A stretch of 11,731 bases of DNA from Promethearchaeota archaeon. GTDB taxonomy: Archaea > Asgardarchaeota > Lokiarchaeia > Sigyniarchaeales > SOKP01. The stretch spans positions 1-11,731 of the forward strand of contig JABXKD010000098.1 of assembly GCA_013375475.1 (NCBI GenBank), written 5' to 3'. Made by a program: the position numbers and the translations under genes. Below the pieces are notes generated by a model. That model was not told where the DNA came from. It was given only the letters and a program-made list of their open reading frames with translations, and ran no database searches. The stretch's first letter is position 1, and each line of letters opens with the position of its first letter. This document shows, in pieces, positions 2-2,118 of the stretch.

Positions 2-496
2 GTCGAGTTAACCGTGCCTTCCGATCTTTTTGCGTTTGAGTCGAATGGGACGACCGTTGCAGAGATTAACATGATAAATCCTGTAAAGAAAAAGTACACG
101 CTATACGATTATCCCAAATTGGGATTAAACACAGAGATGGAATCTGCTGGCGGGAGTCTACATAAATTACTTATGATAGATAGCGAACAAAGCGCTAACG
201 CCGGTAACCCTTTCGTCAACTTAATTTATTCGATTACAGAAGTTGCGAAAGCTGATCCGACCTTTACCATCGCAGACGATTTATATCACGTGGAAACGCA
301 AAATTATCCAGTTTGGAACGGAGAAAAACTTATACACGACCCGACTCTTACCATATATTACGATCCTCAAGTTTCTGAAGAAGAACCATCGGTGCCGATC
401 GCGATCCCGGGATTCAACTTGTACGCGACGATTGCCGTTGCAAGCGCGGTCATAGCGATCCAAATAATAAAGCGTAGAAAAGGAATCAACCCCTAA
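2..496 (+). CDS. Cell-surface/secreted protein, C-terminal part (5' end outside window), with PGF-CTERM/Loki-CTERM-like sorting signal
   Basis: Frame is open from base 2 (VELTVPSDLF...), so the GTG at 14 is probably internal. It ends in an acidic/Pro linker, then IPGF, a hydrophobic helix (NLYATIAVASAVIAIQII) and KRRK, the tripartite archaeosortase-type signal. A T14 run follows. Confidence 0.8.
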   Translation, partial: VELTVPSDLFAFESNGTTVAEINMINPVKKKYTLYDYPKLGLNTEMESAGGSLHKLLMIDSEQSANAGNPFVNLIYSITEVAKADPTFTIADDLYHVETQNYPVWNGEKLIHDPTLTIYYDPQVSEEEPSVPIAIPGFNLYATIAVASAVIAIQIIKRRKGINP

Positions 497-505
497 ATTC
501 ATTTA

Positions 506-519
506 TTTTTTTTTTTTTT
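506..519 (+). terminator. Oligo-T archaeal terminator after surface-protein gene
   Basis: Run of 14 T starting 10 nt after the TAA at 494-496. Confidence 0.55.
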
Positions 520-750
520 GGCAGTAAAAAGAACTTAGAACGGAAAATAAAAATAAATAATAGATAAAATAGAAGGAAAAAACCTCTTCCGGAGTAGAAA
601 ATGACAGAATCTTTACAGTTTGGAAGTATCAAACCGAACGATCAAAATCTTATTTGGAATAAGTTTTCTATTTTTTATTCTAAATTGAATATTTCTCGGG
701 AATTCTCTAAAAACGACTTAAGAACTTGATGTTCCCTTAAAAAATAAGTG

Positions 751-765: not shown

Positions 766-1530
766 TTAAGCTTTCGTCTCCTCGTTTATAAGGTTCAAGA
801 ACTCTTCCACTTCGTCCTTTGAGCACATATGGAATTTCTTATCTTCGGATTTTACATACGCGAATCTTGTGTTATCCTTCGTTGGTTCTTCGTTTATAGA
901 TTCTTTAAGAGCTCTTAATGTTAGTTTTACCGTTTCATCAAACGACAAGTCCTCTTTGTAATTCTCCTTCAAGTAGTCTCTCGCCGTTGCCTCTCCGCTC
1001 CCTAAGGCATATGCTTTAAACGCCCGATAAATGCCGCTCGGAGATGTCGTGTAAATCTGCGTTCCCGCTGGATCGATAGCAATAAAAAACAGAGCACACC
1101 CGAAAGGTCTGATTTAGGCCATGACTCTAATTGAGTCAAGATTTCCTCCGAACTGGGTGTACTGTTGCTTTATGTCAGCTAAGGATTTTACTAACATGTT
1201 TAATCTGACAGGCTCGTCGTAGGTTAAGCGAAAGGATTGCGCTTGAACGCGAGCGTAATTAATTAAAGTTCTTGCATCAGCGTGTAATCCTGAAATAGCT
1301 ACTCCAATATGTTCGTCAACTTGAAATAACTTGTCAATTGAGTCAGCGTCAATTAAATTCGAAGGAATTTTAATTTCAGCTGCTAAACAAACGCATTCTT
1401 TAGTTTTTACCGCTACAGCCAGGGTTCCCCTCCTAACCGCCTCTAGAGCGTATTCCACTTGAAAAAGGCGCCCTTCTGGACTGAACACCGTTAGAGCGCG
1501 GTCGTATTTAACTTGGCCACCGCCAAACAT
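766..1530 (-). CDS. psmA: Proteasome subunit alpha, interrupted by a 30-nt in-frame insertion/putative intron; join(1530..1143,1112..766) gives 244 aa
   Basis: N-terminal alpha signature YDRALTVFSPEGRLFQVEYA, then GTLAVA, VDEHIGVAISGLHADAR and KQQYTQFGG. After the TAA at 1114-1116 the same frame continues IRPFGCALFFIAIDPAGTQIYTTSPSGIYRAFKAYALGSGEATARDYLKENY... to the stop at 766. GTGAT SD-like motif lies 6 nt before the ATG. Confidence 0.95.
1113..1142 (-). other. Putative 30-nt bulge-helix-bulge (BHB)-type intron in psmA mRNA
   Basis: mRNA reads ...UUCG GAGG AA^A UCUUGACUC AAUUA GAGUCAUGG CCUA AA^U CAGA.... It has an inner hairpin UGACUC/GAGUCA, a central helix GAGG/CCUA (3 WC pairs plus one G.A), two 3-nt bulges and an outer exon-exon helix AGUACACCC/GGGUGUGCU. 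Cutting after the second bulge nucleotide on each side removes 30 nt and yields GGA GGA AUC AGA (G-G-I-R). Confidence 0.7.
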
Positions 1531-1600: not shown

Positions 1601-1789
1601 TTATTGTTTATAAGCTAAAAAAAGAGTTTTATCATCATACACATAAAAACCTTGTTTAAAAAAAATATAAGGATCACCTTCCGAACTAATAATTCCATAC
1701 TTTCTTTGAAAATTAAAATATTTTATATATCCATATTTCTTTTCAGATTGAGCTACATCAGGTAAATAGTTTGTATGCATAGCTAGCAT
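1601..1789 (-). pseudogene. Cold-shock-domain (OB-fold)-like gene fragment or small protein
   Basis: GYIKYFNFQRKYGIISSEGDPYIFF resembles the CSD beta1-beta3 pattern GxVKWFNxxKGYGFI...D.FV. The domain appears incomplete, and the frame stays open upstream of the ATG up to the junction at about 1804. Confidence 0.4.
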
Positions 1790-1803: not shown

Positions 1804-2118
1804 GATCCAGCAGGGCCTCAAATTTATACTACATCCCCAAGTGGAATTTATCGAGCATTTAAAGCTTACGCGTTAGGGAGTGGAGAAGCTACAGCAAGAA
1901 ATTACTTAAAAGAAAATTACGCAGAAGATTTGACATTCGACGAGACCGTCAAATTAACTTTAACCGCACTTAAGGAATCTATTAATGAAAAACCCACAAA
2001 AGATAATACACGTTTTGCTTACATAAAATCCGAAGATAATAAATTTCACATGTGCTCGAAAGACGAAGTAGGGAAATTCTTGAGTCTAATAAAGGAAGAG
2101 CCAGAACCTAAAGTTTAA
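1804..2118 (+). pseudogene. psmA: Proteasome subunit alpha, orphan 3'-half fragment (104 codons, no start)
   Basis: Translates DPAGPQIYTTSPSGIYRAFKAYALGSGEATARNYLKENYAEDLTFDETVK...EEPEPKV*. By hand alignment 87/99 residues are identical to the 1074..766 segment. There is an in-frame TAA at 1792-1794, and homology stops abruptly at GATCC (1804). Confidence 0.85.

Follow-up and report, generated by a model that had tools for sequence, protein, structure and literature searches.

A candidate bulge-helix-bulge micro-intron in a second proteasome alpha-subunit gene of a Promethearchaeota archaeon

In Crenarchaeota, the cbf5 gene carries a short intron within its coding region whose bulge-helix-bulge (BHB) motif is often relaxed and whose distribution is patchy with lineage-specific loss, and its existence has been attributed to a hetero-oligomeric EndA splicing endonuclease of relaxed specificity, according to the sections available to us of Yokobori et al. 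2009 (PMC2738675). The accessible part of PMC7714728 describes cbf5 of Crenarchaeota as the only coding mRNA for which a BHB intron has been reported, besides an intron in the 5' untranslated region (UTR) of HVO_1309 in Haloferax volcanii, which was shown there, in vivo and in vitro, to make that mRNA a substrate of the tRNA splicing endonuclease. Here we describe a 30-nt insert in the gene of a second proteasome alpha paralogue, psmA2, in an Asgard archaeon. The window that we analysed is a whole contig of 11,731 nt (G000:C286, where G000 denotes the source genome) from a 3.9-Mb metagenome-assembled genome (MAG), and comparison with related sequences indicates that the insert is likely to be an archaeal BHB pre-mRNA micro-intron.

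Like the cbf5 intron, as far as the available sections describe it, the psmA2 insert is short, lies in a coding region, has a relaxed BHB motif and is patchily distributed. It differs in sitting in another gene and another phylum, in having at least two host genes and in lengths of 29–32 nt that vary by single bases, and its splicing is something that we infer. It does not lie in cbf5, which in the source genome is one open frame of 355 aa. The insert resembles the HVO_1309 intron, in what is accessible of its description, in belonging to an mRNA, but it interrupts the reading frame and is a predicted rather than a demonstrated substrate. Closer in lineage are the tRNA introns of Asgard archaea, for which the available part of a recent preprint (bioRxiv 10.64898/2026.10.13.758758) reports two EndA paralogues consistent with an (alpha-beta)2 enzyme in 44 of 60 genomes, many gains and losses between close relatives, and relaxed motifs as a common feature. 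The presumed machinery is also the same, but those introns lie in tRNA genes; the word 'mRNA' does not occur in that part of the preprint, where protein-coding genes appear only as neighbours. The open-access literature, supplements excluded, yielded no report of BHB introns in Asgard protein genes or in proteasome genes. The Ire1/RtcB-type splicing of XBP1 and HAC1 mRNA in eukaryotes likewise is non-spliceosomal and protein-catalysed and involves a very short mRNA intron, hairpin cut sites, RtcB-type ligation and a change of frame. Its endonuclease and motif differ from those proposed for psmA2, and it serves a regulated stress response.

The interrupted psmA2 gene and its orthologues

The psmA2 gene occupies positions 766-1530 of the minus strand and encodes a proteasome alpha subunit that is split between FGG and IRPFG. 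Its translation reads ...QQYTQFGG NLDSIRVMA-stop IRPFGCALFF..., with both halves in the same frame and a normal stop at the end; the insert amounts to exactly ten codons, the last of which is an in-frame TAA at 1114-1116. In Pfam, the residues before the insert match Proteasome_A_N and positions 1-98 of the Proteasome profile, and those after it match positions 101-184, so that the two matches abut and solely the Gly-Ile at the junction is absent between them. The alpha-subunit signature is present, with PF10584 at an E-value of 1.4e-15 and PF00227 spanning both exons. Translation and Pfam thus confirm the original prediction that a TAA-bearing insert of 30 nt separates two intact halves in one frame. 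Its statement that exon 2 has no early ATG also held, the first in-frame ATG, GTG or TTG being a TTG at 972, 48 codons in. The window gave no Rfam match at gathering scores and no tRNA gene in ARAGORN. By their titles, the closest records are MAGs of Promethearchaeota or Promethearchaeia (Asgard), as expected from the predicted Asgard origin.

An insert of this kind might arise in assembly or binning, and the window makes up an entire contig, 11.7 kb long, of a MAG whose contamination is estimated at 6.4%. However, a contig from an independent DNA run of a separate study (X4) spans 700-1198 and contains the insert; it differs by one substitution, at 1139, a position in the U.U mismatch of the predicted hairpin. 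A metagenome contig (L062) has the same locus arrangement with a 30-nt insert, and many independent assemblies contain related inserts. Now found in independent DNA, the insert is real and not an assembly error, and an assembly or binning artefact has a negligible chance of explaining it.

We compared psmA2 across the genus (42 genomes) and three other families of the order (17 genomes). Among the genus loci examined, FGG-IRPFG is contiguous in 33, G015 has an insert of 31 nt, G042 has one of 32 nt, and G043 has a frameshifting deletion. The GTDB species genomes provided 80 loci, 77 of them without an insert and three with one (32, 31 and a new 29 nt); the 29-nt insert is that of CSMAG_2517 (L110). 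An exon-anchored pattern scanned over metagenome contigs gave nine matches, six of which are psmA2 with an insert, including a one-base variant of the G000 allele and two variants of the G015 type. Four of these inserts are 31 nt long (L055, L057, L058 and L060), and a fifth, also of 31 nt, has an entirely different hairpin (L056). The other three matches (L054, L059 and L061) are unrelated sequences. In total, 121 loci yielded eight distinct intron-bearing and 74 distinct intron-less junctions. The variable inserts with covarying stems that the original prediction had proposed to look for at this site in related psmA genes were therefore found, in eight alleles of 29–32 nt. The length of the insert is not a multiple of three in six of these eight alleles, but in each of the six the shifted frame is open through exon 2, and no other lesion (stop or frameshift) was seen downstream of the break in any of the eight. 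In the other families of the order, psmA matches flagged '1 TAA' or '1 TGA' have no insert at the junction (L038-L042). The TAA flagged in G012 (L009), seen directly, is the terminal stop of the gene.

RNA structure and conservation of the insert

In the transcript, GAGG at the end of exon 1 would pair with CCUA, the four intron bases that precede the 3' bulge, to form a short central helix flanked on opposite strands by the 3-nt bulges AAA and AAU (Table 1). Inside this helix lies a predicted 9-bp intron hairpin with the loop AAUUA at 1128-1132, and outside it a weak exon-exon helix followed by a 9-bp distal exon-exon clamp. EndA, here of the two-paralogue (alpha-beta)2 type with a specificity loop, would cut after the second base of each bulge, and RtcB would ligate the exons into ...GGA GGA AUC AGA CC..., giving a normal alpha subunit with FGG-IRPFG. 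It is this cleavage and ligation of the psmA2 transcript that we infer. The minimum free energy (MFE) fold holds both the hairpin and the 9-bp exon-exon helix (-26.3 kcal/mol, z -2.76, with 3 of 200 shuffles equally good). Both pairings had been part of the original prediction and stand, except that the downstream partner of the exon-exon helix is at 1093-1101 and not, one base off, at 1092-1100 of the minus strand.

The layout is common to all eight alleles. It runs from G-N-G-G in exon 1 and the AAA bulge through a hairpin (about 9 bp, 5-nt loop) and a tetranucleotide complementary to N-G-G (CCUA, CCAA, CCAG or CUGA) to the AAU bulge and CAGAC in exon 2. If both bulges are cut behind their second base, the piece removed is exactly the insert of 29, 30, 31 or 32 nt in all eight, and the predicted cuts give GGN GGA AUC AGA, restoring GG-IRPFG, in every one of them, as read directly from the sequences. 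The predicted excision of 1142..1113, which restores GGA-GGA-AUC-AGA in the window, therefore extends as a rule to eight of eight alleles.

Covariation was computed for the eight alleles on MAFFT alignments made without reference to the structure. Standard pairs fill 86% of the alignment cells, and eight pairs change on both sides. The covariation score of 0.296 compares with 0.128 +/- 0.021 for shuffled alignments, none of 500 reaching it, and slid registers score at most 0.130; an earlier run on seven alleles gave the same picture. Six of the nine pairs of the inner hairpin show compensatory changes, and the variable pair of the central helix (columns 20-53) is UA in five alleles, AU in two and UG in one. 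The motif is a relaxed BHB and not a strict one. The strict hBHBh' form was not found in any of the eight alleles, each having a purine-purine mismatch at one of the four central positions; the relaxed form is present, with three standard pairs plus the mismatch, two 3-nt bulges and a 9-position inner helix. On the outer side there are a G-C pair and two to three of four further pairs, plus the distal clamp of 9 bp. Genome-wide, a relaxed BHB rule, calibrated on psmA2 itself, is satisfied by chance at 0.19% of position-length pairs (lengths 29-32), a rate that falls to 0.028% once seven of nine inner pairs are also demanded.

The exon bases of the motif are fixed as well. The second Gly codon is GGA in all eight intron-bearing junctions vs 12 of the 74 intron-less ones, the Ile codon is AUC in all eight vs 3 of 74, and the Arg codon is AGA in all eight vs 46 of 74. 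Likewise, the distal exon-exon helix has 7-9 of its nine pairs in intron-bearing alleles vs a mean of 6.3 (maximum 8, never 9) in the 74 intron-less junctions. These fixed bases reflect either synonymous-site selection for the RNA fold or flanks co-inherited with the intron, and either implies a real entity. One intron-less gene that lies in or beside the G015 clade (G057) has the junction GGAGGA-AUC-AGA-CC, identical to the predicted spliced junction including the rare AUC, which fits a precise intron loss. Exon 2 is under purifying selection in the intron-bearing lineages. Its ratio of nonsynonymous to synonymous substitution rates (dN/dS) is 0.08 between G000 and G015 and 0.06 between G015 and G042, with intron-less controls at 0.04-0.10, and G000 differs from G014b in exon 2 by 10 nonsynonymous and 56 synonymous changes.

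Two further readings of the insert bear on these features. It could be a mobile mini-element at the DNA level, such as a hairpin like a miniature inverted-repeat transposable element (MITE) with a target-site duplication, or a recombination or attachment-site scar, in either case not removed from RNA. AAAUC does occur at both ends of the insert, and the locus is rearranged, with the truncated copy at 1804-2118, orientation differences relative to a UPF0182-family gene and, in L056, a lone exon-2 copy that starts at the junction. However, the AAAUC copies are 29 nt apart and not 30, and removing one unit would not recreate the intron-less GG-I-R-P; because of this spacing we rejected the target-site-duplication model. 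A covariance model of the element matched only its own locus in the source genome at E <= 10 (150 of 1868 first-look candidates scored). Moreover, the covariation of the stem, the fixed 3-nt bulges and the frame-restoring cuts have no DNA-level rationale, and exon 2 is under selection. We consider a mini-element or scar quite improbable.

The second reading is translational recoding, by ribosomal bypass of the 29-32 nt or by read-through, with no splicing of the RNA. The hairpin and the early in-frame stop after a GGA codon are superficially like the take-off site of phage T4 gene 60, where bypass needs matched take-off and landing codons. Unlike gene 60, psmA2 lacks matched landing codons: no in-frame landing codon fits, the triplet before AUC being UAA in G000 and AAA in G015 and G042, and none of these three has a downstream GGA. 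The bypass model was rejected because these landing codons are absent. Read-through cannot repair the alleles of 29, 31 and 32 nt, and two symmetric 3-nt bulges around a 4-position helix are the geometry of an EndA substrate. Recoding is thus a very improbable account of the insert, slightly more so than a mini-element.

Table 1. Coordinates of the psmA2 features, of the predicted RNA motif and of related features (window positions unless another contig is named)
Feature	Position	Strand	Description
psmA2 exon 1	1143..1530	-	Starts with the ATG at 1530; ends after ...FGG and base 1 of the Ile codon
Candidate BHB micro-intron, 30 nt	1113..1142	-	Missing from 74 distinct intron-less orthologue junctions; 29-32-nt homologues in 7 other alleles
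psmA2 exon 2	766..1112	-	From UC, the rest of the Ile codon, and RPFG... as far as the stop (766-768)
Central helix H, 5' strand GAGG (exon 1)	1145..1148	-	Pairs with CCUA 1115-1118: 3 standard pairs plus a G.A mismatch
Bulge 1 (AAA)	1142..1144	-	Predicted 5' cut between 1143 and 1142; invariant in 8/8 alleles
Bulge 2 (AAU)	1112..1114	-	Predicted 3' cut between 1113 and 1112; invariant in 8/8 alleles
Inner hairpin h'	1119..1141	-	Arms 1133-1141 and 1119-1127; in the MFE fold
Proximal outer helix h, 5' strand GUUCG	1149..1153	-	Weak pairing with CAGAC 1107-1111; 3' side invariant
Distal exon-exon helix, 5' strand AGUACACCC	1155..1163	-	Pairs with GGGUGUGCU at 1093-1101; 9 bp
Truncated psmA2 remnant, last 104 codons, intron-less type, inverted	1804..2118 (possibly from ~1783)	+	Sequence identity, Pfam
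aIF2-gamma candidate BHB micro-intron, 30 nt with TAG	G000:C33:22268-22297 (= L147:1697-1726)	-	Splits the P-loop GHVDHG/KTT

A second candidate intron and the splicing machinery

We scanned the source genome on both strands for relaxed BHB motifs of 14-100 nt that, once excised, would join two open frames, each at least 70 codons long. The scan gave 4767 raw candidates, nearly all of them boundaries between adjacent genes, and recovered psmA2; candidates were filtered and then judged by eye from their junction peptides, so the outcome is not a census. The sole further convincing case is the gene of translation factor aIF2-gamma, found by the kind of scan for other core genes split by short BHB inserts that the original prediction had proposed. 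Its insert has a central helix AUGG/CUAU with four of four pairs, bulges AAU and AAA, and a hairpin. Within the genus, 11 of 36 copies carry the insert (30 nt in G000 and a frameshifting 29 nt in the 10 others) and 25 are uninterrupted; besides these, four copies are cut by contig ends and three genomes have no match. The hairpin shows a compensatory change from U-A to C-G, the exon-exon clamp has eight of nine pairs in all 11 intron-bearing copies (mean for the 25 intron-less copies, 5.7), and the MFE fold has a z of -3.03. G000 and nine other genomes have no aIF2-gamma match besides the interrupted gene. Judging from these sequences, a frameshifting insert in an essential single-copy factor across ten genomes would be hard to explain without removal at the RNA level, and this argument carries over to psmA2.

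Other scan candidates were rejected. Three in HdrA-like genes are in-frame TGA codons and not introns, one is the start of an MvhD-like gene, and one lies inside an aminoacyl-tRNA-synthetase-like motif. The TGA codons are at G000:C281:11035 and at C282:8262 and 8568, in two HdrA-like genes with the contexts ...DDCGI-(TGA)-VLAP... and ...CIDCKN-(TGA)-ERVCP..., and are probably selenocysteine codons.

The enzymes that the proposed reaction calls for are encoded in the source genome. It has two EndA paralogues (PF01974; 200 aa on contig C215 and 202 aa on C133), each with both EndA domains, and one RtcB gene (PF01139). The 200-aa paralogue is most similar to chain 3p1z_B, which we take to be the catalytic subunit of Aeropyrum pernix; the alignment covers its full length and includes the Lys of the 'EKPR' loop. 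By our own residue count this Lys is at position 44, the same number as the specificity-loop Lys in the accessible text of PMC5829648. In the other paralogue we saw no counterpart of the His motif E-H-S-P of the first, as read by eye from unaligned sequences. One paralogue, by its sequence, resembles a broad-specificity catalytic subunit. According to the same part of PMC5829648, Asgard archaea carry an (alpha-beta)2 EndA with an L1 loop, which is linked to relaxed BHB cleavage. In G000, which is estimated to be 100% complete, ARAGORN reported 22 uninterrupted tRNA genes and 21 calls with anticodon-loop introns of 10-77 nt, a tally in line with the reported heavy interruption of Asgard tRNA genes. 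The same-site inserts, their covariation, the fixed bulges, the selection on exon 2, the presence of EndA and RtcB, and the aIF2-gamma case strongly back the original suggestion of a BHB-type mRNA micro-intron.

Counter-evidence, locus history and significance

Several observations weigh against a spliced intron. The GAGG/CCUA central helix with its AAA and AAU bulges is present in the sequence but outside the MFE fold, and the full BHB model (-21.5 vs -24.4 kcal/mol for the MFE) lies 2.9 to 8.9 kcal/mol above it. The mismatch in the central helix recurs in all eight alleles (G.A in seven and G.G in one; columns 19-54), and in L056 this helix consists only of a G-C pair and two wobbles. The proximal outer helix is paired in 75% of its cells, with no covariation and two poorly paired positions. 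Because the alleles are related, the shuffle controls overstate their independence, and the covariance-model search for further copies scored 150 of 1868 candidates. The dN/dS of exon 2 within the G015 clade is above that of the controls, at 11 nonsynonymous to 12 synonymous changes (0.23) and 4 to 2 (0.55), although these counts are small. One congener, G043, has an orthologue that looks decayed, and 6 of 41 congeners have no psmA2 orthologue at E <= 1e-60. Finally, the intact alpha paralogue on another contig (C11) means that loss of psmA2 might be tolerated.

The RNA data belong on the same side. Twelve DNA runs from four studies contain most of the window, and six RNA runs contain small parts of it; the RNA-run shares of 0.06-0.19 of the sampled words were not counted as evidence of habitat or expression. 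No spliced joint was found among the contigs from three RNA-library runs (X13, X16 and X18), whose depth is very low. One contig of 163 nt from X13 (depth 3.5) covers 1120-1282, beginning in exon 1 and extending 23 nt into the intron, and is either unspliced RNA or carried-over DNA. The contigs from X16 and X18 cover exon interiors only and are uninformative on splicing, and none crosses the 3' junction.

Much of this would also suit a young pseudogene, in which a short insertion killed a dispensable alpha paralogue, the C11 copy supplies the proteasome and exon 2 has yet to decay. The C11 paralogue is an intact protein of 238 aa, and the G043 deletion, the congeners without an orthologue and the unspliced contig in an RNA library all agree with such a history. 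A dead gene, however, does not account for eight alleles in 4-5 tree positions that share a structurally conserved insert with no other lesion in any of them, for an exon 2 dN/dS of 0.06-0.08 between intron-bearing alleles, or for the fixed exon bases of the motif. Nor does it account for the same architecture in aIF2-gamma, where the interrupted gene is the only match in 10 genomes and the insert is mostly a frameshifting 29 nt. We therefore regard a young pseudogene as unlikely, though the least so of the alternatives to a BHB micro-intron. The original prediction had treated an intact psmA elsewhere together with decay of this copy as a refutation; the first is partly borne out by the paralogue on C11, but psmA2 shows no decay. 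Its further claim that proteasome synthesis depends on splicing was too strong, the C11 paralogue limiting any such dependence to psmA2 and not to the synthesis of the whole proteasome.

The source genome has five Proteasome-domain matches, among them psmA2 itself and a C-terminal fragment. The C11 paralogue is about 47% identical to psmA2, and open reading frames (ORFs) of 205 and 217 aa were taken from their sequences as putative beta subunits; most genomes of the genus have two alpha-type matches, one per paralogue type. In G014 (9% estimated contamination) there are two full intron-less psmA2 copies, at C179:14890-15621 and C46:32316-33044, which are 94-95% identical to the window's protein and reflect gene duplication or the binning of two strains together. 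In G043, the psmA2 orthologue has a deletion of about 14 nt and a frameshift just upstream of the junction region (L037:1350-1385), through decay or an assembly error.

The window also preserves a trace of how the intron-bearing gene may have come to lie there. The truncated remnant (Table 1) is 97.8% identical in nucleotides to the intron-less G014 gene and 76.8% identical to the adjacent full gene, and the full intron-bearing gene is 77-80% identical to its closest relatives. The remnant holds the position and orientation that psmA2 has in those closest relatives, convergent with a UPF0182-family gene. Since it sits in the native place, the intron-bearing gene looks, from these comparisons, like a divergent allele that displaced the native psmA2. 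In both G000 and L056, an intron-bearing allele is accompanied by a truncated piece of exon 2 left over from an intron-less native copy. In L056, a lone exon-2 copy (225-569, minus strand) starts at the exon junction (GG-IRPFG), is closest to the intron-less G046 and shares its strand with the intron-bearing gene, which is 7.5 kb away. That the L056 remnant begins at the intron site hints at a homing-like allele replacement. The intervening ORFs include a weak PCNA_N match and a 1495-aa protein without a Pfam family, and none of the four ORFs that separate the full gene from the lone copy matched a recombinase in Pfam.

Among close relatives, the orientation of psmA2 relative to its UPF0182-family neighbour varies between convergent and tandem, and it differs even within one clade (G016 vs G005 and G042). 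The loci compared include L007, L009, L011, L013, L016, L019, L029, L036, L043, L044, L058 and L060, and the differences point to repeated inversions at the psmA2 locus. Elsewhere in the window, the space separating the intron-bearing gene from the truncated copy contains a 62-aa ORF (1601-1789, minus strand) that matches no Pfam family and is also present in L062. The plus strand at 2-496 encodes the C-terminal part of a protein, again without a Pfam match, that ends in ...IPGF, a hydrophobic stretch and KRRKG; this end resembles an archaeal PGF-type C-terminal anchor.

In gene trees, the intron-bearing alleles occupy 4-5 separate places among intron-less ones, and alleles that share related introns are also related as genes (G015 and G042; L056 and L110). 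The distribution probably reflects an old intron in the genus with many precise losses, travel with whole alleles, or both. We tentatively raise the broader possibility, held with less than even confidence, that BHB micro-introns are a recurrent and evolutionarily dynamic feature of protein genes in Promethearchaeota, spreading or persisting together with whole alleles.

If psmA2 is spliced as proposed, Asgard archaea process the mRNAs of core genes with EndA and RtcB, which would bear on ideas of how protein genes broken up by introns could be tolerated when there was as yet no spliceosome. Genes of this type are now mis-annotated as split genes or pseudogenes, and this affects completeness estimates and marker phylogenies, aIF2-gamma being a universal marker. 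Polymorphic introns of 29-32 nt alongside closely related intron-less alleles offer a tractable system for the study of intron gain and loss. Should the introns prove recurrent, splicing of mRNA by the tRNA machinery would be routine in the closest prokaryotic relatives of eukaryotes.

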